Shown piece by piece: positions 10,955 through 62,395 of a stretch of DNA of 64,000 nucleotides. Source of the DNA: Candidatus Saccharimonadales bacterium (GTDB lineage: Bacteria > Patescibacteriota > Saccharimonadia > Saccharimonadales > SZUA-47); assembly GCA_041737385.1 (NCBI GenBank), contig JBGSRU010000002.1:269437-333436 (forward strand), given 5' to 3'. The notes beneath the pieces were generated by a model, which ran no database searches, was not told where the DNA came from, and was given only the letters and a program-made list of their open reading frames with translations. The translations under genes and the position numbers were made by a program. Position 1 is the stretch's first letter; every line of letters starts with the position of its first letter.

Positions 10955-12421
10955 ATGGCCGTTGCTTTAGAACCTGCAATTCTGACAATTTTTGGTATAA
11001 CTGGCGATCTTGCACACAGAAAATTACTACCAGCACTCTACAATCTTGCCGACAGCGGCATATTGCCCGAGACGCTACGGATTGTCGGAATTACAAGGAG
11101 TGGTACTACTGTTAAAGAACTTCTCGTTTCAATAAAGAAATCAGTTGAAGATAGCGGCAAGACGTGTAACGACATAACGCTTTCATGGATAGAGCGTGCA
11201 ATGAACGTCGTTACTATGGATATCACCGATTCAGATGATTACAAAAAATTAAAATCTGCATTAGACGAGATCGAAACCGATCTAGGTGTATGTATGCAGC
11301 GGTTGTTTTATTTAGCAATCCCGTCAACTGTGTTCGAACCAGTTGTTAATAGGCTTGGTGAGCACGGACTTAGGAACGGTTGTCAGCACGGTGAAACCGA
11401 AAGTCGCTTACTAATCGAAAAACCGTTCGGCTATGATCTTGCATCAACTGAGACTTTAATTGCAACACTGCAACAATCTTTTAACGAAGATCAGATCTAC
11501 CGTATAGATCATTACCTTGCAAAAGAGACCGTTCAGAACGTGTTATCTTTCAGGTTTGAAAACCCATTGTTTAACGGCGCTTGGGATAAAGTCTCCGTAA
11601 GTCACATTATGATTACCGCTGCAGAATCTATAGGTATCGAAGGTCGAGTTGCCTTTTATGAACAAATGGGAGCAATGCGTGATCTAATTCAGAGCCACTT
11701 ACTTCAGTTGCTCGCTCTCGTGACAATGGAAGAGCCCACAGCAGCAACTGCTACTGCAATACATACAGCGAAAGAAGCAGTTTTTAGCACAATGCAGCCG
11801 CCAAAAGACAACGAAATGGATACTAAAACGGTTCGAGGACAATACACAGGGTACAAACAAGAGATCAAAAACCAAAACAGCAAAACTGAAACCTACGCTG
11901 CACTAGAGATTTCTATTGATAATGACCGTTGGCGCGGTGTACCAATGTTTATTAGAACGGGGAAGGCTCTAGCTAATAAAGTCACCGAAATAACTGTTGT
12001 TTTCAAAGATAGATACGGCACCAAGCGCACAAATACTTTGACGCTACGCATCCAACCTCATGAAGGAATTGTTATGGATCTAATTATAAAGAAACCTGGA
12101 TATGATAAATCCCTTCAGCATGTGCAGATGGATTATTGTTATGAGCAAGATGACCAAGATAGTCCTGAAGCTTATGAGCGTGTACTGGTTGACTCCATGC
12201 GTGGAGACCGAACGTTATTTGCAACCAGCCAAGAGGTGTTGTCAAGTTGGCATGTTGCTGAGCCAGTTATTAAAGCATGGGAAAACGATAGAAGTCCGCT
12301 GCATATATACCGCAAAGAAAGCTGGGGGCCAATATCAGCAAACAAACTCGTGGAAAGGCATGGGGGGTCGTGGCTGACCGATATTTTACAGATATGTTCA
12401 ATACACTTGCCTAAAAACTAG
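10955..12421 (+). CDS. zwf: Glucose-6-phosphate 1-dehydrogenase
   Basis: FGITGDLAHRKLLPALYNL NADP-binding motif, the RIDHYLAKE active-site signature and EKPFG. Confidence 0.9.
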   Translation: MAVALEPAILTIFGITGDLAHRKLLPALYNLADSGILPETLRIVGITRSGTTVKELLVSIKKSVEDSGKTCNDITLSWIERAMNVVTMDITDSDDYKKLKSALDEIETDLGVCMQRLFYLAIPSTVFEPVVNRLGEHGLRNGCQHGETESRLLIEKPFGYDLASTETLIATLQQSFNEDQIYRIDHYLAKETVQNVLSFRFENPLFNGAWDKVSVSHIMITAAESIGIEGRVAFYEQMGAMRDLIQSHLLQLLALVTMEEPTAATATAIHTAKEAVFSTMQPPKDNEMDTKTVRGQYTGYKQEIKNQNSKTETYAALEISIDNDRWRGVPMFIRTGKALANKVTEITVVFKDRYGTKRTNTLTLRIQPHEGIVMDLIIKKPGYDKSLQHVQMDYCYEQDDQDSPEAYERVLVDSMRGDRTLFATSQEVLSSWHVAEPVIKAWENDRSPLHIYRKESWGPISANKLVERHGGSWLTDILQICSIHLPKN

Positions 12422-13062
12422 CGTTTTAGTACTGAAAATGCATGATCCCAAGTATCGTTTCGTGCGCCGTACTCAATCCACAAAAGACATAGCGGCTCCA
12501 ATAAACGACTTTTCTCAATGCTCCCGACGTCCTGTATATCTTTCCAGCCGAGCTCAATTAACAGCTCACCTACATGGTTTTTAGCTGATTCATTGTTTCC
12601 ACACATAAACATTGTCGGTGTGCCAGAACTAAATTTGGGCTGAATCATATTCTTGAAGTTAACTGTGTTCAATGTTTTCACCACATGACTGTCGGTTAGT
12701 GTCTGCTGCACCATTTCACCTGCACTCATATTGTGGCCAACAGCAAGTTGCGGCTCTTCATCGTCAGAAAACAATAGCGGGTTTGTCACATCTATAACAA
12801 TCTTGCCAGATAGCTCAGGTCGAATTATGGCAAGCACGTTTTCAGTTGCGTGCCATGCGACAGCCAAAACTGCTAGTTCTCCAAAATCTGCCGCTTCGGC
12901 AAAAGAACCAAGCTGCAATTTATCTTTATGGTGTTTTTTAGCCCACTTTAAATCTTTTTTAGTTGTATCACGCGTCCCGATCATCACGCTATGTCCACTT
13001 GCGACAAGACCTTTAGCTAAAGCCTGTCCAACATCTCCAGAACCTATAACTGCTATCTTCAT
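12418..13062 (-). CDS. NADP-dependent oxidoreductase, F420-dependent-NADP-reductase-like dinucleotide-binding family
   Basis: MKIAVIGSGDVGQALAKGL Rossmann start, and a length and layout typical of COG2085-type proteins. Confidence 0.6.
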   Translation of the reverse strand: MKIAVIGSGDVGQALAKGLVASGHSVMIGTRDTTKKDLKWAKKHHKDKLQLGSFAEAADFGELAVLAVAWHATENVLAIIRPELSGKIVIDVTNPLLFSDDEEPQLAVGHNMSAGEMVQQTLTDSHVVKTLNTVNFKNMIQPKFSSGTPTMFMCGNNESAKNHVGELLIELGWKDIQDVGSIEKSRLLEPLCLLWIEYGARNDTWDHAFSVLKR

Positions 13063-33317: not shown

Positions 33318-33392
33318 TGGCTGGGTCGGCAGGGATCGAACCTGCGAATGCCAGTACCAAAAACTGGTGCCTTACCACTTGGCGACGACCCA
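33318..33392 (-). tRNA. tRNA-Gln (anticodon UUG), CCA encoded
   Basis: The minus-strand sequence reads TGGGTCG-TC-GCC-AAGTGGTAA-GGC-A-CCAGT-TTTTGGT-ACTGG-CATTC-GCAGG-TTCGATC-CCTGC-CGACCCA-G-CCA. It folds as a 7-bp acceptor stem, a 5-bp anticodon stem with loop positions 34-36 = TTG, and a canonical T arm. Total length is 75 nt. Confidence 0.85.
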
Positions 33393-46191: not shown

Positions 46192-47664
46192 TTATTTATT
46201 CCTATTATTTAATTTTATTGTTTGTGTAACACCAATAGCTTTGAAGAAAAATTCATCATGTGATGAAATCAGCATAGCGCCTTTATATTTTTCTAAAGCC
46301 TGTTCGATGTTTTCTCTTGTTGGTATGTCTAAGTGATTTGTCGGTTCATCTAAGATCAACAAGTCATTTTTAGCAAGTAGTAACTTTGCGAAACTTAGCT
46401 TAGACTGTTGGCCACGAGATAATTCACTTGGGTATTTTTTCAAATCTGTTCCACCCATGCCGAGTGCGCGCGCCTCACGGTAAATGTCTGTTATGTCCGC
46501 ATCGGAGTCAAGCAAGTTATCTAACGCAGTTTTAGAGGTATCAATTCCGTCGACATCTTGTGACAGATATCCAATAGAAATATTTTCTCCGACAGTAACT
46601 TTACCACTTGTTGGACTAATTTCACCTAATGCTATCTTTAGTAGAGTAGATTTACCGCTACCGTTCTTGCCATTTATCCTAAATCGATCATTGCCCCGCA
46701 CTTCAAAAGACAGGTTGCTAAAAAGTTTTTTACTGAACTCCATCGAAACATCTTCCACGCTCAATACAAGTTTGTGCAAATGTGCTCCGCCATCAATAGC
46801 TATTTTATAGCTTCTTTTGTTCTCTGGTTTATCGAGCTCACTAATTTGCTTCAAACGCGATTCCATAGAACGTACTTGCTGTCCATACTGCCTAGTTACA
46901 CGGTTCTTGAAATAGTCCCGTTGAGCCTTGTCATTATCCGTGCGCTTGATGTGTTTATGAGTGTGCAGTTCTAATTCACGACGCTGTCTAAGAGCACTCT
47001 CTACCCGTCTACGTTCTTCGATGCTTGCTTCGTACGCTTCTTCTGCGTGGAGACTTTCAAGGTCCTTTTGTTGCCTATAGTTATCATAGTTTCCGCTATA
47101 GACTTTCAGGATTCCTGATTTAAGATCTAATATCTTAGATGCAGATTTATTAATGAAGTTACGATCATGGCTTATTATCACTACTGAGCCCTTAAAATGT
47201 TTTACATATTTTTCTAACCACACTAGGCCTTCCGCATCAAGGTTATTGGTAGGCTCATCTAGTAGTAGTACGTTAGGTTTAGGCTGTTTTGCTAGAACTA
47301 TAGCTATAGCAAGACGAGTTTTCTCACCACCGCTTAAAAGCTTCGTGTTAAAATCCATTGGTTTTTTTAAGCCAACGTCTTGCAACGCTAAATCAATTCG
47401 CCATTGTTCAGTATCGTCATCAAAGCACTGATTAATAGCCGTTCCAAAATCCTCTTGCTGTGGTACATAACCAGCAGCTGCACTCGGAACCTCGACTTTT
47501 CCATTATCGGGCTTGATTTTACTTAGCAGAATCTTTAACAGCGTCGTTTTGCCAGCTCCATTTTCACCAATAAGAGCAATAACCTCGTTGTGAAGCGTGA
47601 GGTTTATATCTTTAAGGACTTCTTTAGCCCCAAAGGATTTACTAATATTTATGAGTTTATACAT
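46192..47664 (-). CDS. ABC-F family ATPase (two ABC cassettes, no TM domain), ARE/translation-factor type
   Basis: Walker A GENGAGKTT and GKNGSGKST, signatures LSGGEKTR and LSRGQQSK, and Walker B LLLDEPTNNLD and LILDEPTNHLD. A charged interdomain linker is present. The start is ATG 47664 with a GGAGA RBS. Confidence 0.85.
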   Translation of the reverse strand: MYKLINISKSFGAKEVLKDINLTLHNEVIALIGENGAGKTTLLKILLSKIKPDNGKVEVPSAAAGYVPQQEDFGTAINQCFDDDTEQWRIDLALQDVGLKKPMDFNTKLLSGGEKTRLAIAIVLAKQPKPNVLLLDEPTNNLDAEGLVWLEKYVKHFKGSVVIISHDRNFINKSASKILDLKSGILKVYSGNYDNYRQQKDLESLHAEEAYEASIEERRRVESALRQRRELELHTHKHIKRTDNDKAQRDYFKNRVTRQYGQQVRSMESRLKQISELDKPENKRSYKIAIDGGAHLHKLVLSVEDVSMEFSKKLFSNLSFEVRGNDRFRINGKNGSGKSTLLKIALGEISPTSGKVTVGENISIGYLSQDVDGIDTSKTALDNLLDSDADITDIYREARALGMGGTDLKKYPSELSRGQQSKLSFAKLLLAKNDLLILDEPTNHLDIPTRENIEQALEKYKGAMLISSHDEFFFKAIGVTQTIKLNNRNK

Positions 47665-47676
47665 ATTTTCTCCAAA

Positions 47677-47723
47677 CAAAAAACCGAGCACGTTGTTGAC
47701 TAGTAGTCACACGAATGCTCGGT
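47677..47723 (-). terminator. Leader terminator (attenuator) immediately upstream of the ABC-F RBS
   Basis: The minus strand reads ACCGAGCA-N25-TGCTCGGT followed by TTTTTT, and ends 7 nt before the GGAGA of the ABC-F gene. Confidence 0.65.
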
Positions 47724-50449: not shown

Positions 50450-50734
50450 ATGGATCCAACTCAAGTAATAAATCAGCGTGTTGAAGTGGCTGTCTTTTAC
50501 AGAAAAGATTGCGACATTAGTATGTTGGCGTACCCGGTTAAAATGAAATATAAAAACCAAGAAATACTTTTTACTCGTTTAGGTCTCAGGCACGAAACAG
50601 CTAAAGGCAAAAGAATGATTCACGTGTTTGATATGTCAGATGGTGTAAATGATTATAGATTAGAATTTGATGCACAAGGCTTAACCTGGACACTCGTTGC
50701 GATTATCCCGGGCGTCTATGAGGCAGGGAAATGA
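50450..50734 (+). CDS. 94-aa hypothetical protein translationally coupled to the Y-family polymerase
   Basis: Its stop overlaps the polymerase start (ATGA, 50731-50734). It shows no S24 peptidase (UmuD) or YolD motif. Confidence 0.5.
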   Translation: MDPTQVINQRVEVAVFYRKDCDISMLAYPVKMKYKNQEILFTRLGLRHETAKGKRMIHVFDMSDGVNDYRLEFDAQGLTWTLVAIIPGVYEAGK

Positions 50735-51987
50735 ACTACGATTTAAACCAAGACGAACCAAGAATAATGTGGGTAGATTTGAATAGTGCATTTGCAATGG
50801 CAGAACAGCAAGCCCATCCATCACTGCGCAACAAACCACTAGGCGTGACGAACAGACTGTCAAAAGAATGCTGCGTCATTGCAGCCTCATATGAAGCGAA
50901 GGCTCTTGGAATAAAGGTGGGGGTTAGACGCTCCGAAGCGAAAGCACTCTGTCCCGACTTCATCATGCTAGAGACTGATCCACCAAAATACCATCACGTA
51001 TACAAAAAACTAGCGGCAATAATGAAAAGTTACTGTCCAGATGTAAAGATGAAAAGTATAGATGAAGGAATTATGGACTTTAGAAAGATGGACAAAACTT
51101 ACACAACAGAGCGCCTGATTGCTATCGGCTACGAAATGAAAGAGCGCGTCAAAACTGAAATTGGAGACTATATAAAAATAAACGTAGGAATCGCGCCTAA
51201 TAGATTCTTGGCTAAAACAGCAGCCGGTTTGCACAAGCCGGACGGGCTTGACGTCATAGACCATAGGAACCTAATAAAAGTCTACAGGTCGTTAGAACTA
51301 CAAGATTTAAACGGCATAGCTGATGGCTATGGAAGCAGGTTAAGATCGTTTGGCATTGCAACACCAATGCATTTTCTTAATGCTCGTGAAGACCTACTCC
51401 GCAAACAAGTTTTCAAAAGTATAAACGGAATGCACTGGTATAAGAGACTTAGGGGCTATGAAGTGGACGACTACGAAACCAACATAAGCATGGTTGGCCG
51501 TCAGTGGGTAGTGAAGAGTCCAAGCAACAACGAAGACTACCTGCGTTCATGTCTGCATTTCCTAGCTGAAACAACTGGCATGAAACTACGTTACAGAAAT
51601 GTCGAAGCTAGAGGCGTTGCAGTCTGGCTGGCCTTCCAGTCTGGGGAAGTATTCTCAGACAAAAAAATGTACAAAACTGGAGTTTTTACTAACGAAGATA
51701 TTTGGCTTCGTGTATCGAAAATATTTAACAACCGCCCCAAGCATATGGTGGTCAGAACCATGGGGCTATATTTATATAAACTTGAACCGTCTAGTCGCAG
51801 TCAAATTGGCTTATTTCACAATACTGAAAAATCACAATACATTACCGAGGCAATGGATGAGATAAACGATTTCTATGGTTCATTCACCGTGTTTTCAGGC
51901 GACTCACTTGAAGGAACCAAGCACGTGAAACAGAAAATTCCATTCGGCGGTACAGAGTATTTCGATTTATTATTAAAGAGACAATAA
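50731..51987 (+). CDS. Y-family DNA polymerase (UmuC-like translesion polymerase)
   Basis: MWVDLNSAFAMAEQQ...LRNKPLGV resembles the UmuC N-terminus (D-x-N-x-F-Y-A-S-x-E). The catalytic SIDEG motif is retained, and little-finger-size C-terminal domains are present. Confidence 0.8.
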   Translation: MNYDLNQDEPRIMWVDLNSAFAMAEQQAHPSLRNKPLGVTNRLSKECCVIAASYEAKALGIKVGVRRSEAKALCPDFIMLETDPPKYHHVYKKLAAIMKSYCPDVKMKSIDEGIMDFRKMDKTYTTERLIAIGYEMKERVKTEIGDYIKINVGIAPNRFLAKTAAGLHKPDGLDVIDHRNLIKVYRSLELQDLNGIADGYGSRLRSFGIATPMHFLNAREDLLRKQVFKSINGMHWYKRLRGYEVDDYETNISMVGRQWVVKSPSNNEDYLRSCLHFLAETTGMKLRYRNVEARGVAVWLAFQSGEVFSDKKMYKTGVFTNEDIWLRVSKIFNNRPKHMVVRTMGLYLYKLEPSSRSQIGLFHNTEKSQYITEAMDEINDFYGSFTVFSGDSLEGTKHVKQKIPFGGTEYFDLLLKRQ

Positions 51988-51993
51988 TTTATT

Positions 51994-52255
51994 GTGGCTT
52001 TTCGCGCCACACTAAAGTGGGTTACTTCGTCCCACACCCTCGACATACTTTCTTGTGTTTACTAGAAAGTATGCAAAGAAACAACAGCGGGCGATAAAAG
52101 CGCGACACACTCAAAACAACTTTGCACTGTGCCTGCGGGACTCCCGTTGGTCGGTCAAAAATGTTTCTTGAAGTTACATATTTTTGACTTGTCCTCGGCA
52201 ATGACTCAGCGCGAAGTTGCTCCAAGTGATCGGTTTTACCGCTTCATGCTGACTC
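51994..52255. repeat. Structured intergenic repeat, copy C (H0, H1, H2, H3 and one ATGCTG module)
   Basis: H0 is GTGGC-N7-GCCAC (51994-52010). H1 is GTGGG-N9-CCCAC (52017-52035). H2 is CATACTTTC-N12-GAAAGTATG (52044-52073). H3 is GTCAAAAAT-N17-ATTTTTGAC (52154-52188). ATGCTG occurs at 52246. Confidence 0.8.
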
Positions 52256-52284
52256 AATACAAGCTTGAGAAGTATTGACAGATG

Positions 52285-52293
52285 TGATATAAT
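52285..52293 (+). promoter_or_regulatory. Extended -10 promoter (TGaTATAAT) for the leader transcript
   Basis: TGATATAAT at 52285-52293, with ATG 52301 lying 7 nt downstream. The nearby TTGACA (52275-52280) is only 7 nt away and so is not a functional -35. Confidence 0.5.
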
Positions 52294-52300
52294 ATATCTA

Positions 52301-52399
52301 ATGAATAAAATCAGTATTTCAGTTTCAACAGAACACCTTTTGCAGCAAGCTGCGGTATTTTTTGGTTTTATCTCTTTTATCCAGGCGGTAGCTCCTTAG
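52301..52399 (+). CDS. Candidate 32-aa Phe-rich leader peptide (MNKISISVSTEHLLQQAAVFFGFISFIQAVAP)
   Basis: Leaderless ATG. Four TTT Phe codons fall within seven codons (52358-52378), and the ORF end overlaps the antiterminator segment GGCGGTAGC (52384-52392). Confidence 0.45.
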   Translation: MNKISISVSTEHLLQQAAVFFGFISFIQAVAP

Positions 52400-52431
52400 A
52401 ACGTATTAAACGACCATAAATAATTACAAAA

Positions 52432-52457
52432 GCGACCGCCAGAAAGCGGTCGTTTTT
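52432..52457 (+). terminator. Leader terminator of the PheRS-like operon (attenuator)
   Basis: CGACCGC-cagaaa-GCGGTCG followed by TTTTT, 14 nt upstream of the GGAGA RBS of the 52485 ORF. Its 5' arm is complementary to 52384-52392. Confidence 0.6.
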
Positions 52458-52484
52458 AATTAAATATTAATTGGAGAAATTACT

Positions 52485-52676
52485 ATGAGTGAAATACAAA
52501 AATATATTGGAGAAGAGTTAGATAAACCAGAAACCCTAAGCAAACAGTTAGATAAACAAGATGATGGGCTTGAAGTTGAAGCCAGTGTAGCGCCTGTAAC
52601 CGAACTTGGAGCTGGTGAAATAATAGCCTTATCACTAGATGATATTGTTCCGCGTAGCTGGAAAAGCTGGGAATAG
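52485..52676 (+). CDS. 63-aa acidic protein, function unknown
   Basis: The GGAGA RBS lies 8 nt upstream, and the stop lies 2 nt before the next start. It is very acidic and has a C-terminal ALSLDDIVPRSWKSWE. Confidence 0.5.
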   Translation: MSEIQKYIGEELDKPETLSKQLDKQDDGLEVEASVAPVTELGAGEIIALSLDDIVPRSWKSWE

Positions 52677-52678
52677 TC

Positions 52679-53818
52679 ATGAAAATGAATATTAAGCCAC
52701 TAACAAAGGCTCAGGCAGATTACTACCTGAGCCTCCCAGATCTTACAAAAGAAGAGAGCAATCATGCGGTTGGCTTGCTGTACAGAAAAATCAAAAAGAA
52801 AATAGAATCAACACATCCAGATAGTGAAATTATGATCTATCGGGATAATCAGATCATTTCTATTGAAGATAACTATGAAAACTTGCTGATTCCAAAATAC
52901 AATATTAGTCGTTCATCTACCTACACACATTATGTAGATGGGGGTACGTTGCTACGAACTCACGCATCATCAGCAATACCTGGCGCTATGCGTGAGCTTG
53001 CAAAACGCAGCGACTGGAATGACGTCGTGATTCTCGTTCCAGGACTCGTATACAGGCGTGATGTGGCAGATAAGAAACATGTCGGACAGATTCACATGCT
53101 AGATGTTTGGCGTGTTGTAAGAACAGCCGGCAGGCCAGAAGTTACTCACGATACACTTCTAGGTGCAGTTAAAGATATAGCAGCAACAGCTGCACCTGGG
53201 TGGATGCTACGCATTGAGGATTCACCTCATCCATACACTGACGGCGGCATTGAGGTTAATGCCGTCAACAAAGATGATGGACGAGATATAGAAATACTAG
53301 AGTGTGGACTCATCAAAAAAGAAGTCTTAAAAATCAATGGCCTAGACCCACGGGTCTATTCAGGATGGGCGCTCGGTATGGGGCTCGACAGACTCGTTAT
53401 GACGCTGAAGGATTTACCAGATATACGTTATTTGCGTTCAGGTAACCCTAAAATAGCTAAACAAATGCTAAACCTTAATACGTATTTGGAAGTGTCTAGT
53501 CAGCCTGCAATACAGCGCGATATGTCCTATTCAGTACCTGAAAGTTACGTTGAAGAGGATATATCTCAAGACATAATGTCTGCAATGGGTGATGATATAG
53601 CAGCTCTTGAAGAAGTAGAGATATTAAACGAAACCAGCTACGAAGACTTGCCGGATACAGCACGTAAAAATCTTGGCATACAATCAGACCAAAAGAATGT
53701 GCTAGTTCGTGTGACGTTGAGGCATCTAGAAAAAACGCTAACTAGTAAAGAGGCCAACATAATCTATGACAATATCTACCCACAAATTAACTACGGGGCA
53801 GCGGGGTACGCATCATGA
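52679..53818 (+). CDS. Single-chain PheRS-like class II aminoacyl-tRNA synthetase homolog (alpha-type catalytic core plus a C-terminal FDX-ACB-like domain)
   Basis: LLRTHASSAIPG aligns with LLRTHTS. Motif 2 is GLVYRRDVADKKHVGQIHMLDV. Motif 3 is GWALGMGLDRLVMTLKDLPDIRYL. The C-terminal PAIQRDMSYSVP...VLVRVTLRHLEKTLTSKEANIIY resembles the ferredoxin-fold anticodon-binding domain. Confidence 0.7.
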   Translation: MKMNIKPLTKAQADYYLSLPDLTKEESNHAVGLLYRKIKKKIESTHPDSEIMIYRDNQIISIEDNYENLLIPKYNISRSSTYTHYVDGGTLLRTHASSAIPGAMRELAKRSDWNDVVILVPGLVYRRDVADKKHVGQIHMLDVWRVVRTAGRPEVTHDTLLGAVKDIAATAAPGWMLRIEDSPHPYTDGGIEVNAVNKDDGRDIEILECGLIKKEVLKINGLDPRVYSGWALGMGLDRLVMTLKDLPDIRYLRSGNPKIAKQMLNLNTYLEVSSQPAIQRDMSYSVPESYVEEDISQDIMSAMGDDIAALEEVEILNETSYEDLPDTARKNLGIQSDQKNVLVRVTLRHLEKTLTSKEANIIYDNIYPQINYGAAGYAS

Positions 53819-53863
53819 TTATTTCGACAACATCAACTAACTTATATTTGATAGACTAAACAT

Positions 53864-54883
53864 ATGAAACAAGAAAAAATTATCAGAACAGTTTGTGTAT
53901 TTACAAAAGAACCCAATGATTCGTCCATTGATAGATTAGACTTAATTGTTCAAAAACTCGAGCAAAACGGCTATATTGTGCAAACAAAACGAGTCGCATC
54001 GACAGTTGATTATCTTAATGAGCTTGTTGCGCTTACGCAGAAAGGCATTGAATACGTGAGTGTTGGCGATGTAACTACTGAACAAGCACTAGAAATACTG
54101 CCTACTTTCTATGAAAACAAGGCACTTACATTCAATATAGAGCTAGCAAAAGAAGAAATATCTCAGAAGCATGTAGATATACTCCACAAAATCATAGAAA
54201 ACAACGCTTCGAAAACATTTAGCTTCACCTATACCTTCAACAACGCAGCTTCCAGCCCATATTTTCCATCTGCTCGCTTCGTAGAAGATGGTTTTGCCAT
54301 AGGACTGCAGCCAACCGATCTGTCTGTCGGCTGTGATACGCTCGAAGAATGGCTAGAAAACATGCATAAAACATGGCAAGAGATTACCGATCTATTTGCC
54401 AACGAACCAGATTTTCTAGGTATTGATAGTTCTATAGCCCCGCTACTTGACGGAAATAGCAGTTTTATAAACTTCATAAAACGGCTTGGGCTTACATTCG
54501 AACAAACAGTAACTACGGATATGTACACGACAATAACGAAGTTTCTAAAAGAACAGAACCCTAAGCCTATAGGTCTATGCGGCATGATGCTCCCGTGTTT
54601 AGAGGATTTTGAATTAACTACAGAATACGAGGCAGGAAACTTTTCTATTGAAAGAAATGTTTTCTTGTCATTACATTCAGGGCTAGGTATAGATACCTAT
54701 CCCATTGGCGTCGATGAAAAGCCAGAGCGTGTAATAGAAATACTAAAGCTAATCCAGTCGCTGTCAAATAAGTACAATAAGCCACTTTCTGCTCGTTTTG
54801 TTTCAGACGGCAAAGCTAAAATCGGTGAAAAATCTGATTTTCAAAATCCTTATCTCAAAGATTGCGTGATTCGTCCGCTTTAG
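53864..54883 (+). CDS. DUF711 / UPF0210-family-like protein (shortened, 339 aa)
   Basis: Collinear similarity, judged from memory, to UPF0210 proteins. The matching segments are IIRTVCVF, QTKRVA, SSPYFPSARF, LGIDSSIAPL, GLCGMMLPCLED and GLGIDTYPIGVDEKPERV. Confidence 0.55.
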   Translation: MKQEKIIRTVCVFTKEPNDSSIDRLDLIVQKLEQNGYIVQTKRVASTVDYLNELVALTQKGIEYVSVGDVTTEQALEILPTFYENKALTFNIELAKEEISQKHVDILHKIIENNASKTFSFTYTFNNAASSPYFPSARFVEDGFAIGLQPTDLSVGCDTLEEWLENMHKTWQEITDLFANEPDFLGIDSSIAPLLDGNSSFINFIKRLGLTFEQTVTTDMYTTITKFLKEQNPKPIGLCGMMLPCLEDFELTTEYEAGNFSIERNVFLSLHSGLGIDTYPIGVDEKPERVIEILKLIQSLSNKYNKPLSARFVSDGKAKIGEKSDFQNPYLKDCVIRPL

Positions 54884-55470: not shown

Positions 55471-57699
55471 ATGAATTTAAGCGATAACGAAAAACGAGAT
55501 GTAATTAAATATCTAGAGGCTGGCAAGCCCCTGCCAGAGAAATATCGTTTTTTGTTATTTGATGACGCTCGCGAAGTTGAATTACTGTGGAATGGCAAGA
55601 CTAATGAAGTTACAAATACCGTCCTACCATTCCAAGTTATTGAACAGATTGATGAGCCACGGAGTGACGACAAAATTGGACTACAATCAACATTGTTTGA
55701 CGATAGCGGTAGACAGTTAACAGGTTGGACTAACAAGTTAATATGGGGCGATAACAAGCTAATTTTGTCATCCCTGAGTAATGGCCCATTTCGTAAAGAA
55801 ATTGAAGCTCAAGGCGGATTAAAGCTGATATATATTGACCCGCCTTTTGATGTTGGTGCAGATTTTTCAATGGATATATCAATTGGAGAAAGCCAAGACG
55901 AACAAAGTTTTACAAAGAAACCGTCCGTCATTGAAGAGATTGCATATCGTGACACTTGGGGTAAGGGTGCTGACAGCTTCATATCAATGGTGTATGAACG
56001 CCTAAAATTAATGCATGATTTACTGGCTGAAAACGGTAGTATATATGTTCATTGTGACTGGAGAGTAAATGGTTACATGCGTCTAGTGCTAGACGAAATC
56101 TTTGGTAAAGATAATTTTTTGAATGAGATTTTATGGAAAAGAAGAACAAACACAGTAAAAGCTATATCAAATAAATTTCAAATCAATACAGATACAATCT
56201 TCGTTTATACGAAGTCAAAGGGGAGCTATCAGTTTAATCTTCAGTATGGAGAGTATCCGAAAGAATATCTAGATAGGTTTAAGTACGAAGATGAAAAAGG
56301 TAAATTCAGGTGGCAAGTAATGGCTACATACTCAGAGGCAAGGCTAGCTTCTCTACAAAGAGAAGACAAAGTTAGATTTTCAAAGGGTGCAAAATATCCC
56401 GAGTTCAAGCAGTATGTATACGAATTAAAAGGTAAGCCCATAGAGAATGTTTGGGATGATTTAAACATGATAAATGCTATGGGAGATGAAAGACTCGGCT
56501 ATGCTACCCAGAAGCCTGAAGTGCTACTTGAAAGAATTATCAAGGCGTCGTCAAATGAGGGTGACTTAGTCGCTGACTTCTTCTGTGGTTCAGGAACAAC
56601 CATGGCTGTAGCTGAAAAATTAAATAGAAAATGGATAGGCTCGGACCTAGGCAAGTTTGGCGTCCATACTTCTCGGAAGCGAATGATTGATGTACAGCGT
56701 AAGTTAAAAAAAGACGGTGTTAACTTCAGAGCTTTTGAAATATTAAATGTCGGTAGATATGAACGAGATAGCTACTTAAATGTTAATGACGACTTGCGTG
56801 TCGAAGAAAAGGCCCAGCAAGCTATAAGAAAAGAAAAAGAGTTTGTTAAGCTAATTATTACAGCATACAAGGCAGAGCCTGTTGAGTCGTTTGTAAACAT
56901 TGTTGGGAAGAAAAGAGATAGGTTAGTAGCAGTTGGTCCAATTAGTACGCCTGTTTCGTCTAAGCAAGTGGACGATATAGTAGCTGAGTGTAAAGACAAA
57001 GGCATTACAAAGGTTGACATACTTGGGTTTGACTACGAAATGGGATTAGATTTTCATGCATACGCCAGTCAAGGCATAGATGTTGCATTTAGGATAATAC
57101 CAAGGGAAGTGTTTGATAAAAAAGCTGTGGAGCGAGGACATGTTAAGTTCTACGATGTTGCTTTTATTGAAGCTAAACCAACCGTTAAAGGTCCGATGAA
57201 TAAGAAAGAAGTATCAATAGAATTGACCGACTTCTCCGTTTTTTATAATCAAGATGACTCCGGCGAAGTTGCAGAGGCATTACGCCCCGGCGGAGAAAAG
57301 GTCATTGTAGAAAACGGCCAAGTAGTAAAAGTTTCAAAAGATAAAGAGAGCGATATTATCTCAAAAGAAGTACTAACCAAAAAATGGAGCGACTGGGTTG
57401 ACTATTGGGCTGTGGACTTTGACTTTTCAAGCCGAAAAGAAATGATTAGAGTACCAAAAACTCATGGAGATAATCTATTTGAAAAAGGTAAAGTTCAGGA
57501 ATTGCTTGAGTTTGAAGATGTGTGGACTGGAGACTACATATTTGATAACGAATGGCAGAGTTTTAGGACAAAAAAGAACAGAGAGCTTGAACTGACCTCA
57601 GCGGCAAAAGAAGTTGGGCGAGGCAAATATAAAGTAGCAATCAAAGTTGTAGACATATTTGGTAATGACACTACTCGGGTTATTGAGGTAGAGGTATAG
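55471..57699 (+). CDS. mod: Type III restriction-modification DNA methyltransferase (Mod, N6-adenine/N4-cytosine beta class)
   Basis: Motif IV LIYIDPPFD precedes motif I DFFCGSGTTMAVAEKLNRKWIGSDL. The N-terminal EKYRFLLF...LIWGDNKL region is typical of type III Mod proteins. It lies directly upstream of res. Confidence 0.85.
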   Translation: MNLSDNEKRDVIKYLEAGKPLPEKYRFLLFDDAREVELLWNGKTNEVTNTVLPFQVIEQIDEPRSDDKIGLQSTLFDDSGRQLTGWTNKLIWGDNKLILSSLSNGPFRKEIEAQGGLKLIYIDPPFDVGADFSMDISIGESQDEQSFTKKPSVIEEIAYRDTWGKGADSFISMVYERLKLMHDLLAENGSIYVHCDWRVNGYMRLVLDEIFGKDNFLNEILWKRRTNTVKAISNKFQINTDTIFVYTKSKGSYQFNLQYGEYPKEYLDRFKYEDEKGKFRWQVMATYSEARLASLQREDKVRFSKGAKYPEFKQYVYELKGKPIENVWDDLNMINAMGDERLGYATQKPEVLLERIIKASSNEGDLVADFFCGSGTTMAVAEKLNRKWIGSDLGKFGVHTSRKRMIDVQRKLKKDGVNFRAFEILNVGRYERDSYLNVNDDLRVEEKAQQAIRKEKEFVKLIITAYKAEPVESFVNIVGKKRDRLVAVGPISTPVSSKQVDDIVAECKDKGITKVDILGFDYEMGLDFHAYASQGIDVAFRIIPREVFDKKAVERGHVKFYDVAFIEAKPTVKGPMNKKEVSIELTDFSVFYNQDDSGEVAEALRPGGEKVIVENGQVVKVSKDKESDIISKEVLTKKWSDWVDYWAVDFDFSSRKEMIRVPKTHGDNLFEKGKVQELLEFEDVWTGDYIFDNEWQSFRTKKNRELELTSAAKEVGRGKYKVAIKVVDIFGNDTTRVIEVEV

Positions 57700-57700
57700 C

Positions 57701-60391
57701 ATGGCTCTACATAAAGACTTTCCAACAGACCCTTACGCTATATTAGACCCAAGTATTCGCTGGTTTCCCGCTGATGAAGATTTGAGGGACAAGGGGCACG
57801 AGAAGCTACTCCCACCACTTGTTGCTGACTTGCGAAAAAAAGTTAAGGAATGGCGACTGCTCAATTATGAGGGTGCAAGTGATACATCTATTGCACTGCT
57901 AAACTGGTGGTTCAAAGAAGACCATATTCAATACAATCAAGACGGCTCTTCGTACATTTTTAGATACTACTTTGCACAGCGTGAAGCACTTGAAACAGTT
58001 GTCTGGCTTTACGAAGTTGCTAAGGTAAAAGATAAGTACGACCTCATACGATACAACTCCACTGGTGTGCTAAGTGCAGGCATGTTTACAGAGGAATGGC
58101 TTCGGTTCGTAATCAAGATGGCTACTGGTGCTGGAAAGACAAAAGTCATGAGCCTTGTGCTCGCATGGGCTTACTTTCACAAAAAATATGAGGAAGACTC
58201 ACAACTGTCAAAGAACTTCCTCTTAATTGCCCCCAATGTGATTGTGTTTGAGCGTATAAAGAATGACTTTGAGGGATTGAAGATATTCCATGAAGACCCT
58301 GTACTTCCTGATAATGGCTATCGTGGTCAGAATTGGCAGGATGACTTCCAACTCACGCTTCACTTACAAGACAATCTACGGAACATTTCTGACACGGGCA
58401 ACATCTTCCTTACTAACATACATCGTGTGTTCGAGTCGGATGTTAAGAACGCCAGTGCTGATGACGAAGACTCATCGACCTATTTCTTAGGCGACAAGCC
58501 TGTGACTAAAACAAATGACTCAACAGTTGACCTAGGAATGATAGTTAGAGATATTGATGAGTTGATTGTTATCAATGATGAAGCTCATCATATATGGGAC
58601 GAAAAGTTAGCATGGGCAAAGTCAATTCAAGATATAGACAACCAGTTAAAGCAAAAGGGCTCAGGGTTATCACTACAGCTTGATGTTACGGCTACACCAA
58701 AGAAGCGAGACGGTTCAATCTTTGTACAGACAATTAGTGACTACCCTCTTGTCGAGGCAATACACCAACAGATTGTTAAAAACCCTGTTGTGCCTGACGC
58801 CGCAAGTCGGGGTAAGTTACATGAAAACCAAAGCTCACTGTTTAGTGAAAAATATAGAGACTTTATTAACCTTGGTATTGAAGAGTGGCGTAAAACCTAC
58901 GATGAATTGAAGCCTATGGGCAAGAAGTCAATCTTGTTCATAATGACAGATGACACTAAGAACTGTGATGAAGTAGCAGAATATATCAGAACTAGCTTTG
59001 CTGATTTGCGAGACGGCGTACTAACTATTCATACCAATAAGAGTGGCGATATCTCAGAAAGCGTTTCAGGAAAGAACAAAGACGAGCTAGATATACTCCG
59101 TAAGCAAGCTAACGAGATTGATAGTTGGGAAAGCCCATTCAAAGTAATCATTTCTGTAATGATGTTGAAAGAGGGTTGGGATGTTAAGAATGTAACTACT
59201 ATTGTTGGACTAAGGCCATATGCCGCTGACTCTAAAATCTTACCCGAACAAACACTTGGTCGTGGTTTGCGTAGAATGTTCTTTGGTCGAGATGATGTAA
59301 AAGAATATGTCAGCGTAGTTGGTACGCCAGCCTTTATGGAGTTCGTGGAGTCAATCAAGGGCGAGGGCGTTATCTTAGAAAAGAAAGCCATGGGCACAGG
59401 CTCTAAGCCAATAGCACCTATGGTTGTTGAGGTAGACAGCGAAAATCCACAAAAAGATATTGAAAAGCTAGATATTGAAATACCAATCATGACTCCAAGA
59501 ATACAGCGGGAGTACAAGAACCTTTCTGACTTAGATGTATCAAAGTTTGGTAACAAAAAAGTTTCAATAAAAACATTTACTGAGCAAGAAAAGCGAGAGA
59601 TTGTTTTCAAGGATGTTGTTGGCGAAAACGAACATCACACTACTGTACTTAGTGGCGAGATAAACCCTGACTACCAAAGCGTGATTGGCTTCTTCGCACA
59701 AGCGATTATGCGAGAGCTAAGACTGTTTGGTTGCTATGACATTTTGTTTGGCAAGGTCAGAGAATTCGTGCACCAGTATATGTTTGAGAACGAAGTTGAG
59801 CTGTCTGATTTGAACATGCTCAGAAACCTATCCGAAGTTGAGTATATTCATCTGATAAAAGACTCGTTCAAAAAAGCAATCAACGAACTAACGGTTCAAG
59901 ATAGTGGCGATACCGAGATAAAGAACTATATCAAGATAAGTGAGTCACGCCCATTCGTCGTGAATGACAAGGGTTTCGTTGTACCTAAAAAGTCAGTCTT
60001 CAATAAAATTGTCGGCGATAGCGATTTTGAGCTAGTGTTTGCTGGCTTTATAGAGGGATGTGAGGATGTTATTTCGTTTACCAAGAACTTCCAAAACAAA
60101 GAAGCTAGTGCCCTGCGAATTGAGTATAAAAACTCTGAGGGCTTCATAGCTAACTACTACCCTGACTTCTTTGTAAAAACTGATAGCAAAACGGTCTATA
60201 TAATTGAAACTAAGGGTCGTGAAGAAGAAGATGACAAGCTAAAATTTGAGCGTCTAAAAAAGTGGTGTGATGATGTTAATGACCGCCAAAGCAAAATGGC
60301 CTATAATGCTCTCTACATAAAACAAGAAGAATGGAATAGAGACAGACTAAAGAGCTTCGATGAGGTTGTCCGAGTATTTGGAGATAAGTAG
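57701..60391 (+). CDS. res: Type III restriction endonuclease Res subunit (SF2 helicase plus PD-(D/E)XK nuclease)
   Basis: Walker A MATGAGKT, DEAHH, MLKEGWDV and the C-terminal YYPDFFV...YIIETKG nuclease motif. It starts 1 nt after the mod stop. Confidence 0.85.
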   Translation: MALHKDFPTDPYAILDPSIRWFPADEDLRDKGHEKLLPPLVADLRKKVKEWRLLNYEGASDTSIALLNWWFKEDHIQYNQDGSSYIFRYYFAQREALETVVWLYEVAKVKDKYDLIRYNSTGVLSAGMFTEEWLRFVIKMATGAGKTKVMSLVLAWAYFHKKYEEDSQLSKNFLLIAPNVIVFERIKNDFEGLKIFHEDPVLPDNGYRGQNWQDDFQLTLHLQDNLRNISDTGNIFLTNIHRVFESDVKNASADDEDSSTYFLGDKPVTKTNDSTVDLGMIVRDIDELIVINDEAHHIWDEKLAWAKSIQDIDNQLKQKGSGLSLQLDVTATPKKRDGSIFVQTISDYPLVEAIHQQIVKNPVVPDAASRGKLHENQSSLFSEKYRDFINLGIEEWRKTYDELKPMGKKSILFIMTDDTKNCDEVAEYIRTSFADLRDGVLTIHTNKSGDISESVSGKNKDELDILRKQANEIDSWESPFKVIISVMMLKEGWDVKNVTTIVGLRPYAADSKILPEQTLGRGLRRMFFGRDDVKEYVSVVGTPAFMEFVESIKGEGVILEKKAMGTGSKPIAPMVVEVDSENPQKDIEKLDIEIPIMTPRIQREYKNLSDLDVSKFGNKKVSIKTFTEQEKREIVFKDVVGENEHHTTVLSGEINPDYQSVIGFFAQAIMRELRLFGCYDILFGKVREFVHQYMFENEVELSDLNMLRNLSEVEYIHLIKDSFKKAINELTVQDSGDTEIKNYIKISESRPFVVNDKGFVVPKKSVFNKIVGDSDFELVFAGFIEGCEDVISFTKNFQNKEASALRIEYKNSEGFIANYYPDFFVKTDSKTVYIIETKGREEEDDKLKFERLKKWCDDVNDRQSKMAYNALYIKQEEWNRDRLKSFDEVVRVFGDK

Positions 60392-60969
60392 TGGATGACC
60401 TAGAGTTGTCCGCTAATGTATTCCACGAACAAGCTGTACAGGCTTATGTGTCCTCTAGAATGTTGCTGGCTACTACCTCGTTATTCCCAGTAGGTTTGTA
60501 TAGCGCGCATCTAGCATGTGAATGTATGTTGAAATCATTAACTGCTCAGTCAGGCTCACATCCTGTGCAGAAGCACGATTTATTAATGCTGAACACTAAC
60601 TTGCAGATAGCAATAAATGACAATGATTTATTAGGACAAGAATATATACGAATACTTACTTGGCTCAATCCATATAGTGAGCTAGGTAGGTATGGTGCTT
60701 TAGCAAGGCCACAAAATGATCCCGATAGAGTTATATCAGGACCAGTACAAGTAAGAGGTGCTGTATCATCACAACCGTCGGGTGATATGAAAGATATAGA
60801 TTTTGTTTTCACTCTGTTAAGAAGTATATCAACGGTTGAAAATGATATAATAAGTAAAATTGTTGCTGGCAAAACAGTCAGAGGCTGGAACTCATCTGTT
60901 TCCATCGAGGAAGTAGTGCTGGCGCATAACAAATATACTAATCTTCTCAATAAATCAACAGGGATCTAA
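60391..60969 (+). CDS. HEPN-domain-like protein coupled to res
   Basis: The GTG start overlaps the res TAG by 1 nt. The pattern AHLACECMLKSL...VQKHDLLML...YSELGRYG fits the HEPN helix arrangement (A.E..LK.L...H.L..L......RY). Confidence 0.5.
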   Translation: MDDLELSANVFHEQAVQAYVSSRMLLATTSLFPVGLYSAHLACECMLKSLTAQSGSHPVQKHDLLMLNTNLQIAINDNDLLGQEYIRILTWLNPYSELGRYGALARPQNDPDRVISGPVQVRGAVSSQPSGDMKDIDFVFTLLRSISTVENDIISKIVAGKTVRGWNSSVSIEEVVLAHNKYTNLLNKSTGI

Positions 60970-61618: not shown

Positions 61619-62395
61619 ATGACTTTTCCACAAATTATTCGAAAATTAAGAGCAGATAACAGCTTAAGCCAGCAGGATCTTGCTGACTACGTTGATATTG
61701 CTCGCGCAACCTATGTTGGCTTGGAGAACGGTCGACGTGACCCGAATTTGAGCGAAATTAAGGCAATTGCCGAGTACTATCAAATATCGCCCCAGGAATT
61801 AATTGACGGGAAGTTGACTGATAAGAAGGCTCCTGCTGTAGTCATTCTCGAATCTAACACAGCCGAACTAACACAAGTTGTTAATCTCAACAAAGAAAAG
61901 TTTAGAGAAGTAGTTCTGTATATACTCAACAAAGTAGGCGCCAAACCTAATGTGGGCGAAACTGTGTTATATAAGCTATTGTACTTTATTGACTTTGATT
62001 ATTACGAGCAAAAAAATACATCTATAACGGGTATGCAGTATGTGAAAAATCACTTCGGTCCGACTCCAAGAAAGAGGGATTTTGACGCAATTATAGATGC
62101 AATGAGCGCTCAAAAAGAAATCGAATTAATCAAAACAAAATATGCAACAAAAGATCAAAAAAAGTACCTCCCAGCAAAGAGCCCTCAACTTACTAATTTG
62201 AGTGCAGATGAGATTAAGCATATCGACGAAGTACTTAGCAGATTAAGCGACAAAAACGCCACAGAGCTATCTGACCTGTCCCACAGGGATATGCCATGGA
62301 TAGCATCAGACCCAAACGAGGTTATAGATTACGACCTTGTTTTTTACCGTACACCAGTAACAGCTAGAAGTAACAGCAGCGATGATCCCCTTTGA
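61619..62395 (+). CDS. XRE-family HTH fused to a Panacea (DUF4065/SocA-like) antitoxin domain
   Basis: N-terminal IIRKLRADNSLSQQDLADYVDIARATYVGLENGRRDP HTH. The central KLLYFIDFDYYEQKNTSITGMQYVKNHFGPTP is typical of DUF4065. Confidence 0.7.
   Translation: MTFPQIIRKLRADNSLSQQDLADYVDIARATYVGLENGRRDPNLSEIKAIAEYYQISPQELIDGKLTDKKAPAVVILESNTAELTQVVNLNKEKFREVVLYILNKVGAKPNVGETVLYKLLYFIDFDYYEQKNTSITGMQYVKNHFGPTPRKRDFDAIIDAMSAQKEIELIKTKYATKDQKKYLPAKSPQLTNLSADEIKHIDEVLSRLSDKNATELSDLSHRDMPWIASDPNEVIDYDLVFYRTPVTARSNSSDDPL

Follow-up and report, generated by a model that had tools for sequence, protein, structure and literature searches.

Likely phenylalanine-leader control of a PheRS-like ligase, SrmL, and a compact DUF711 protein in Saccharibacteria

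Leader-peptide attenuation of aminoacyl-tRNA synthetase (aaRS) genes is known, and among the described systems closest to the locus considered here are pheM-pheST and pheL-pheA of Escherichia coli, in which a short open reading frame (ORF) with a run of phenylalanine (Phe) codons is combined with a Rho-independent terminator and a competing antiterminator. We analyzed a three-gene operon in a 64,000-nt stretch of the genome of a Candidatus Saccharimonadales bacterium (contig JBGSRU010000002.1, positions 269,437 to 333,436; the whole stretch is referred to as the window). It encodes an acidic 63-aa protein, a ligase related to phenylalanyl-tRNA synthetase (PheRS) that belongs to the catalogued family SrmL, and a compact protein of the likewise catalogued DUF711/UPF0210 family. 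The operon shares the short Phe-codon ORF, the terminator, and the competing antiterminator with the E. coli systems, and pheM-pheST likewise controls a PheRS-type gene. Unlike in E. coli, the leader ORF has a predicted leaderless start, there is no sign of a region 1:2 anti-antiterminator, and the genes controlled are those of a PheRS paralog and a DUF711 protein instead of pheST; Saccharibacteria moreover possess a second leader variant (type A), in which the Phe codons pair with a downstream Shine-Dalgarno (SD) sequence. Another precedent is trpRS1 of Streptomyces coelicolor, an auxiliary TrpRS gene under a Trp-codon leader peptide that constitutes a resistance-type duplicate with a canonical pocket. 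Here the likeness is that of a second synthetase gene induced via codons for its own amino acid when charged tRNA falls, whereas amino acid and enzyme class differ, the SrmL pocket is remodelled, and a non-aaRS gene is co-regulated.

The proteins themselves have described counterparts as well. Human mitochondrial PheRS (FARS2; PDB 3CMQ, 3TUP, 5MGH) is, like SrmL, a single chain without editing domain, yet its motifs FHQLE and FPFTHPS read IHMLD and HPYTDGG in SrmL, which is bacterial. Within the NCBIfam family NF051887 (SrmL), the window protein shares its two domains and its signature H-P-Y-T / E-C-G with proteins from Actinomycetota; those members are about 39% identical to the Saccharibacteria clade and are preceded by a RFLRPRPG-type ORF, in contrast to the Phe-codon leaders described here. 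The DUF711 protein has the fold of SP0239 (PDB 2HA9), a ten-stranded beta/alpha barrel related to pyruvate formate-lyase (PFL) and ribonucleotide reductase (RNR), but is 16% identical to it, about 110 residues shorter, and associated with a Phe leader in one Saccharibacteria subclade. An ACT-domain (UPF0237) partner, presumably typical of Firmicutes DUF711, is absent here. Amino acid:[carrier protein] ligases, truncated SerRS-like enzymes without tRNA-binding domain whose partners are true phosphopantetheinylated carriers, resemble the operon in placing an aaRS paralog beside a small acidic ORF. In contrast to these, SrmL keeps an anticodon-binding domain, and its small neighbor is dispensable, has no match to the PP-binding family, and lacks a conserved serine.

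We favor, with slightly better than even confidence, an interpretation of this locus as a phenylalanine-limitation-inducible operon in which an auxiliary PheRS-like tRNA ligase and a DUF711 enzyme are regulated together. Transcription would proceed from the promoter-like site, from or near the ATG of a 32-codon leader ORF (coordinates in Table 1). As long as Phe-tRNAPhe is plentiful, the translating ribosome would reach the leader stop codon (52397-52399) and cover the 5' strand of the antiterminator, whereupon the terminator would form and end transcription. When Phe-tRNAPhe is scarce, the ribosome would stall at the first Phe codons (52358-52363), the antiterminator would pair with the 5' arm of the terminator, and RNA polymerase would enter the three genes. 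SrmL is most likely an auxiliary, editing-less, monomeric PheRS-type ligase acting on tRNAPhe, which would boost or back up Phe-tRNAPhe synthesis, and the DUF711-like protein may be a co-regulated enzyme for the same need, in Phe supply or in a tRNAPhe-linked reaction. The 63-aa ORF would belong to the leader cassette as a passenger or coupling ORF under weak constraint and would be neither substrate nor carrier.

The three co-directional ORFs are separated by 2 nt (63-aa ORF/SrmL) and 45 nt (SrmL/DUF711), confirming the coordinates of the original prediction, which had placed this tightly spaced operon behind a single attenuator. That attenuator is borne out by the terminator and is now read as a Phe-codon leader with an antiterminator/terminator switch. 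The whole block of leader, 63-aa ORF, SrmL, and DUF711 gene was found again in independent metagenome contigs (L006/L007; L-numbers designate the related loci compared, and the metagenome scan was queried with a SrmL alignment), where SrmL is 85% identical and the flanking genes are unlike those of the window. Recurrence of the block with other flanks excludes a chance arrangement. Homologs of SrmL and of the DUF711 protein belong overwhelmingly to Candidatus Saccharibacteria (TM7), within the Patescibacteria or Candidate Phyla Radiation (CPR).

Boxes comparable to the -10 element of the window promoter lie 6-9 nt 5' of the leader ATG in L011, L064, and L103; this spacing in several lineages suggests leaderless translation, with a transcript predicted to start at the leader ATG or within few nucleotides of it. 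The four Phe codons of the regulatory cluster start at positions 52358, 52361, 52367, and 52376. Downstream, the terminator ends 28 nt 5' of the 63-aa ORF start, and its 5' arm doubles as the 3' strand of the antiterminator, AGCGACCGCCA (52431-52441). The antiterminator duplex AGGCGGUAGCUC/AGCGACCGCCA has a dG of -15.9 kcal/mol compared with -11.9 kcal/mol for the terminator hairpin, while shuffled sequences yield a mean of -5.7 kcal/mol and 0 of 300 shuffles equal the antiterminator. Seven distinct leaders of the window type (type B) keep this pairing with dG values of -12.8 to -17.4 kcal/mol (p <= 0.003) and a 5' strand ending 3-12 nt before the stop codon. Pairing-preserving changes are tolerated, as exemplified by GGCGGUAGCU and GGCGGACGCU, and the terminator stem is identical in L006/7, L011-13, L019, L034, L064, L080, L102, and L103. 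In ribosome-masking folds, a footprint on the first or second Phe codon lets the antiterminator form on the nascent RNA, and a footprint at the stop codon does not, in accordance with classical attenuation, where a low level of Phe-tRNAPhe leads to read-through. A Phe-codon ORF conserved as coding, an intrinsic terminator, and a mutually exclusive antiterminator, the elements of a leader-peptide attenuator, are hence all present as computed; the transcription start and the direction of regulation in vivo are inferred.

Described RNA families do not account for this element. The Phe_leader model of Rfam (RF01859) scores 20.8 bits (E 0.61) in the window leader, below its gathering score of 55; Trp_leader is likewise sub-threshold there, and no riboswitch matched. 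A T-box was detected neither at E <= 10 in 51950-52550 nor at gathering score across the whole window. The window element is therefore analogous, not homologous, to pheM/pheL. A further hairpin, GCAGC-AA-GCUGC at 52340-52355, is located within the leader ORF, where the UUUUUU of the first two Phe codons follows it directly. A scan scored it as terminator-like, and it is only weakly conserved among other type-B leaders; pausing of RNA polymerase at this hairpin could keep transcription and translation in step.

Most Saccharibacteria lineages carry a Phe-rich leader upstream of SrmL. Thirty distinct Phe-rich short ORFs, homologous or analogous to that of the window, precede SrmL in lineages that are 54-100% identical, and they fall into three types. 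Type A ends in ..FFFFGFFAA and is positioned 64-71 nt upstream of the SrmL start; type B ends in ..FFGF[TI]SFIQAV[AT]P(RTY), LFFGSFILADAPRTY, or LFFFDTFIQAVTPRKY and has the strong terminator of the window behind it; type C, NLFF[SN]FILNP[PS]RG, precedes a different terminator. Leader ORFs comprise 19-36 codons from an in-frame ATG and are kept despite sequence divergence, and Phe is specified by TTT 96 times and by TTC 51 times, with C at third positions only. Third-position interchange and maintenance of the ORFs argue that the leaders are coding and not mere U-tracts. At least five Phe in eight residues were counted in 16 of 48 distinct upstream regions (33%) compared with 0.24% of 3400 control windows, and at least four Phe in 24 of 48 compared with 4% of controls. 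The runs are specific for Phe, with no runs of Tyr, His, or other residues.

Type A leaders appear to use the same codons in a translational design. The pyrimidine-rich run of Phe codons in these leaders base-pairs with the purine-rich SrmL ribosome-binding site (mean dG -15.0 compared with approximately -7 kcal/mol), a pairing that is significant in 13 of 17 leaders according to per-sequence duplex statistics. These were used because the alignment-based consensus fold, with the SD region out of register, yielded the stop-codon hairpin only. The loop of this small hairpin holds the type A stop codon, and one of its base pairs covaries, U-A being replaced by C-G in 6 of 17 sequences. Stalling of a ribosome on the Phe codons would expose the SrmL SD sequence, so that type A and type B designs both predict induction on Phe-tRNA shortage. 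When the related loci were scanned for other genes under Phe-leader control, mostly spurious ORFs inside coding regions were obtained, and only the leaders of DUF711 genes stood out.

In these loci, a type-B leader ending in ..AAVFFGFTSFIQAVTPRTY and its terminator precede a small ORF and a DUF711-like gene with no adjacent SrmL (L011-13, L101/102, L103/104). The presence of this leader before DUF711 in three further lineages without SrmL indicates that SrmL and DUF711 share a regulon. Apart from the window and L006/L007, SrmL is directly followed by a DUF711-like gene in L018 (SrmL 82% identical) and in L064 with the partial locus L063 (SrmL 60%); elsewhere, SrmL is found alone among housekeeping genes. 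DUF711-like genes in turn occur alone, for instance after rplM-rpsI in L014/15 or, in a Daviesbacterium, amid toxin-antitoxin genes. The leader cassette thus controls SrmL or DUF711 singly or the two together, and the connection between the two genes is mainly one of shared control, not adjacency. Sequence comparison directly establishes this modular distribution, along with the ORFs, their family memberships, the conserved Phe leaders, and their alternative RNA pairings. No link between a PheRS-like enzyme and DUF711 was found in the literature searched, in line with the original prediction. In two SrmL-only lineages, an uncharacterised ORF of 159-171 aa is located 3' of SrmL (L003, 11408-11923; L004, 11211-11690), the latter with weak matches to Rv0361-type membrane protein models.

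The middle gene, which had been called PheRS-like, indeed encodes both expected domains in one chain, tRNA-synt_2d (PF01409, residues 35-262, 1.3e-28) and FDX-ACB (PF03147, residues 273-370, 6e-8), and is a member of the already catalogued NF051887, "PheS-related mystery ligase SrmL" (389.3 bits, cutoff 300; residues 20-371 on model positions 2-347 of 349). Its best PDB match is human mitochondrial PheRS (2e-21), with 5MGH/3CMQ aligned over residues 53-146 and 180-364, a range that spans the catalytic core, the PDIR hinge, and the C-terminal FDX-ACB anticodon-binding domain. By sequence, SrmL thus has the architecture of a mitochondrial-type monomeric PheRS. An alignment of E. coli PheS with 53 sequences of the Saccharibacteria clade and 8 of the outgroup revealed an invariant class II machinery, comprising motif-2 R126, motif-3 R238, H95 and S97 of the H-T-S triad, and A231 (E. 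coli A294), and an acidic residue is retained at the E. coli E210 position (D142). SrmL is under strong purifying selection (dN 0.093 and dS 1.49 compared with the 85% relative; dN/dS ~0.06). It retains the full set of elements for adenylating an amino acid and recognising the anticodon of a tRNA; together with control as in E. coli pheST, these features make an auxiliary PheRS-type ligase for tRNAPhe the simplest assignment. An exact look-up of the window SrmL gave no match. No functional study of SrmL was found in the literature searched, where monomeric PheRS is described from organelles only and not from bacteria.

SrmL is also widespread in Actinomycetota, including Nocardia, Microlunatus, Kocuria, Microbacterium, Sanguibacter, and others, whose proteins are labelled SrmL by NCBI/UniRef. 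These score 514-529 bits with NF051887, compared with 377-389 bits in Saccharibacteria, and share the pocket signature. These genera encode canonical pheST, and SrmL is therefore an additional paralog there. The actinobacterial genes are monocistronic with unrelated neighbors and provide no clue to a partner. All eight that were examined are preceded by an ORF of 24-27 codons, e.g. MTSQRRFLRPRPGYGRGVVRVRLYA, of the RFLRPRPG type with an R-P-R motif. This ORF is embedded in three palindromic GC-rich copies of CCCGGCCGGG that can form alternative hairpins, and no Rfam family matches the region at gathering score. The arrangement resembles an attenuator of another, undescribed kind for the same gene family. 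Actinomycetota are known hosts of Saccharibacteria and prolific antibiotic producers, and host-epibiont horizontal transfer is a possible reason for the sharing of SrmL between the clades. Within Saccharibacteria, the distribution is patchy. The cultured Saccharibacterium Southlakia epibionticum has essential pheS (SEML1_0572) and pheT (SEML1_0562) genes, and its supplementary tables, in the portion accessible, list no second PF01409 protein and no PF05167 protein (PMC10633639).

Membership of the third gene in DUF711, as originally predicted, is supported by Pfam PF05167 (69.8 bits, cutoff 25, 2.5e-19, profile positions 97-406 of 413). The match to the NCBIfam equivalog of full-length UPF0210 (NF003700, ~450 aa) reaches 18.1 bits against a cutoff of 440 and aligns the C-terminal 90 residues alone, and a phmmer search of PDB sequences gave no match. 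The original prediction regarded the 339-aa protein as shortened; it is indeed shorter than the Pfam model, but 335-341 aa is the length of over 100 CPR homologs (Saccharibacteria, Levy-, Moran-, Pace-, Woese-, and Daviesbacteria; 55-79% identical) and is normal for what is a separate, CPR-wide short subfamily. This constant length, a confident model, and many invariant residues, among them C11, C245, E247, D248, and H271, rule out a truncation or pseudogene. An AlphaFold2 model derived from 28 homologs (pLDDT 93, pTM 0.90) has 2HA9_A (SP0239) as its sole significant structural match (E 4.9e-15, probability 1.00, TM 0.66/0.56). DUF711 has been classed with the ten-stranded PFL/RNR barrels, with no recognised glycyl-radical site and no known function (PMC4390871). 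As stated in the original prediction, a function of the family is not established, and no functional study of DUF711/UPF0210/COG2848 later than that classification was found in the literature searched. The regulation of the gene suggests a role in Phe supply or tRNAPhe-linked metabolism; any DUF711 activity is inferred, as are the amino-acid and tRNA substrates of SrmL.

The product of the 63-aa ORF had been loosely likened to a carrier protein on account of a terminal motif, although judged too short for a canonical one. The motif (..IIALSLDDIVPRSWKSWE) is present near the C-terminus, not at its very end, and a carrier or acceptor role is not supported, on several grounds. The protein has no PP-binding or other Pfam/NCBIfam match even at E <= 10. 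Orthologs were identified in L006/7 (59% identity), L011, and L103, with a common M-[SC]-E N-terminus and [IV]PRSW near the C-terminus, and Ser50, the serine of LSLDD, is Pro in L011 and L103. Compared with L006, the ORF displays no purifying selection (pN 0.217, pS 0.218; dN/dS ~1), whereas the neighboring genes are strongly constrained. It is dispensable: in L064 only ~10 codons of it are left beside a retained leader, SrmL, and DUF711, and it is absent from 46 of 50 SrmL lineages; in L011 and L103 it occurs with DUF711 alone. The ORF is probably translated, weakly constrained, and sits in a variable small-ORF slot after type-B leaders. Unrelated small ORFs fill this slot elsewhere, among them an 81-96-aa helical protein encoded both with SrmL (L008) and with DUF711 (L102; 60% identity between the two, E 4e-21). 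Homology between the acidic 63-65-aa and the helical ORFs is not supported (hhalign probability 0.1%), and neither kind has a domain match.

Table 1 Features of the window and of related loci (positions refer to the window unless a locus is named)
Feature	Coordinates	Strand	Details
Promoter-like site	52265-52293	+	TTGAGA, 17-nt spacer, extended -10 TGnTATAAT; 11/12 consensus matches
Leader peptide ORF	52301-52399	+	32 codons; MNKISISVSTEHLLQQAAVFFGFISFIQAVAP, then stop; contains ..VFFGFISF..
Regulatory Phe codon cluster	52358-52378	+	TTT TTT GGT TTT ATC TCT TTT; 4 Phe in 7 codons
Antiterminator 5' strand	52383-52394	+	AGGCGGUAGCUC; within last leader codons, ends 3 nt before stop
Intrinsic terminator	52431-52457	+	Stem CGACCGC/GCGGUCG, loop CAGAAA, then U5; dG -11.9 kcal/mol
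Acidic 63-aa ORF	52485-52676	+	First of three co-directional ORFs; pI 4.2
SrmL, 379 aa	52679-53818	+	Class II PheRS core and FDX-ACB
Compact DUF711/UPF0210-fold protein, 339 aa	53864-54883	+	Pfam PF05167
101-aa ORF	L018 32-337		ATGA overlap with SrmL start; replaces 63-aa ORF, dissimilar to other small ORFs
Upstream ORFs of actinobacterial SrmL	L085 5750-5988; L086, L087, L088, L089, L090; L099 6834-7000; L100 6817-7000		
94-aa ORF and Y-family (DinB/UmuC-like) DNA polymerase	50450-51987		IMS 4e-34; 4-nt overlap at polymerase start
ABC-F type ATPase	46192-47691	-	Two ABC_tran domains and ABC_tran_Xtn
Type III restriction-modification (R-M) methyltransferase	55471-57699		PADLOC MTase_III 3.7e-111
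ResIII helicase/endonuclease	57701-60391		Directly after methyltransferase
HEPN protein	60391-60969		Downstream of operon
HTH-Panacea (SocA-like) antitoxin	61619-62395		Downstream of operon
tRNA-Gln (UUG)	33318-33392	-	Sole tRNA/Rfam family at gathering score in the 64-kb window

The operon is located in a stretch that looks accessory. On its 5' side are the 94-aa ORF and the Y-family DNA polymerase, and beyond these the ABC-F protein, an APH-type kinase, and a PRK-like kinase. The relative L006 lacks the ORF/polymerase pair, which in the window is an insertion that separates the PRK-like kinase block from the operon. Directly 3' of the operon, the type III R-M pair, the HEPN protein, and the HTH-Panacea antitoxin constitute a small defence island; PADLOC defence-system models gave no match for the 63-aa protein, SrmL, or the DUF711 protein. 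ABC-F proteins act on stalled ribosomes, and both the window and L011, a locus with DUF711 only, encode an ABC-F ATPase at most ~5 kb from their Phe-leader operon (in L011 at 11200-12678, minus strand), a proximity that may or may not be meaningful.

Several points weigh against a Phe-limitation operon. Promoter, leaderless start, and RNA switch have all been predicted computationally, and in the equilibrium fold of the full leader the terminator wins, as is expected for a kinetic switch. Conserved co-occurrence, to be checked in gene neighborhoods according to the original prediction, holds for the recurring block in L006/7, but of the 50 distinct SrmL lineages of Saccharibacteria for which downstream sequence is available, only 4 place DUF711 next to SrmL. 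CPR DUF711-like genes without any leader exist (L014-L017), and the conserved ORF upstream of actinobacterial SrmL has one Phe codon only, which means that Phe sensing is not family-wide. SrmL falls short of the models for bacterial PheS (TIGR00468; 88.1 bits, cutoff 237) and mitochondrial PheRS (TIGR00469; 131.7 bits in two stretches, cutoff 258), and NCBI curators named NF051887 a "mystery" ligase. Relative to E. coli PheS, its pocket carries H184 for F248, Y186 for F250, and E208 for G271, invariant in 52 of 52 aligned Saccharibacteria-clade sequences (one of 53 is gapped) and in the actinobacterial outgroup sequences, while Q208 is M140 in most and F206 is I, V, or L (I138 in the window). 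The PheS signature F-P-F-T, FHQxE, L-G-C-G accordingly reads H184-P-Y186-T, I138-H-M140-L-D142, L-E208-C-G, and with the Phe-ring pocket remodelled in this way, the cognate amino acid may not be Phe. SrmL might then activate another substrate, e.g. a hydroxylated or aminated aromatic amino acid or another acid, and transfer it to tRNAPhe or a non-tRNA acceptor, with DUF711 as pathway partner and the Phe leader tuning the pathway. Such a reading comes close to the amino-acid transfer or modification pathway of the original prediction. We consider this serious but on balance rather improbable. The missing editing domain, the position of SrmL beside a ten-stranded-barrel enzyme in the four lineages, and the fact that canonical PheST is already essential in a Saccharibacterium, according to the accessible portion of that source (PMC10633639), would all be compatible with it. 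Retention of FDX-ACB under purifying selection, however, argues for a tRNA acceptor, Phe-codon-specific control points to Phe-tRNAPhe supply, and the 63-aa protein, suggested as acceptor, lacks conservation. In eukaryotic cytosolic PheRS alpha, N-P-Y presumably occupies the two 'F-P-F' positions, in which case Tyr there would be compatible with Phe.

A special case of the preferred auxiliary-ligase interpretation is a spare PheRS, insensitive to an inhibitor or discriminating against an analogue, that is switched on when the main PheRS is poisoned, for example by an inhibitor from the host or a competitor or by a toxic analogue such as m-Tyr. Poisoning would lower Phe-tRNAPhe, and since the attenuator responds to any fall in charged tRNAPhe, the leader would turn on SrmL. 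Resistant auxiliary aaRS genes include trpRS1 and ileS2. A remodelled pocket beside an intact catalytic core, the accessory, defence-rich site (type III R-M, HEPN, and Panacea antitoxin, with ABC-F nearby), and a family shared with the Actinomycetota, hosts and antibiotic producers, fit this idea, yet no inhibitor is known, DUF711 is left unexplained, and most loci lack resistance-gene context, SrmL usually being found among housekeeping genes; we deem it unlikely. A search with the E. coli proteins (tblastn) for canonical pheS/pheT in the 64-kb window and 883 kb of related loci matched SrmL genes only, which also weighs against an auxiliary role and could be taken to mean that SrmL is the housekeeping PheRS, a monomeric replacement of PheST in an operon equivalent to pheST with its attenuator. 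The regulatory logic is that of E. coli pheM-pheST, and in mitochondria a monomeric enzyme of SrmL-like architecture can be the sole PheRS (PMC12525003). A window of 64 kb is, however, far too small to prove the absence of pheS/pheT. SrmL is patchy in Saccharibacteria and, as far as the accessible part of its source goes, absent from Southlakia with its essential pheS/pheT; the NCBI curators, who view whole genomes, gave no PheRS name; and the pocket is remodelled. SrmL further coexists with PheST in Actinomycetota. Replacement of PheST is very improbable. The original view that the operon serves something other than housekeeping translation stands insofar as SrmL is an accessory paralog, but Phe-codon control ties SrmL to Phe-tRNA supply and not to some unrelated modification pathway.

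Beyond the auxiliary ligase with its co-regulated DUF711 enzyme, a broader picture can be drawn that we hold only tentatively and think doubtful as a whole. Saccharibacteria would possess a Phe-starvation regulon governed by leaderless Phe leaders in transcriptional and translational variants, with SrmL and compact DUF711 as effectors. SrmL would be the first bacterial monomeric mitochondrial-type PheRS, or a ligase charging tRNAPhe with a Phe surrogate; DUF711, a PFL/RNR-type barrel and an orphan since 2006, would carry out a Phe-supply or tRNAPhe-linked reaction; and the sharing of SrmL would reflect host-epibiont transfer.

Relative to the literature searched, the Patescibacteria Phe leaders in two mechanistic variants, their control of SrmL, and the presence of DUF711 in the same regulon appear to be new, as does the recognition that SrmL is an enzyme of bacteria built like mitochondrial PheRS. 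In practical terms the results are of modest value: they offer a hint for annotating thousands of proteins and a candidate for a natural genetic switch that responds to Phe. For the biology of these organisms, the predicted ribosome-mediated attenuation, with two designs built on the same Phe codons, concerns Patescibacteria/CPR, a group in which regulation is almost unexplored. SrmL, with thousands of members in Actinomycetota and Saccharibacteria, and DUF711/UPF0210, an orphan of structural genomics, would both be tied to shortage of charged tRNAPhe, and shared Phe-leader control is, as far as we are aware, the first contextual clue to the function of DUF711. The occurrence of mitochondrial PheRS architecture in bacteria bears, finally, on the origin of the organellar enzyme.

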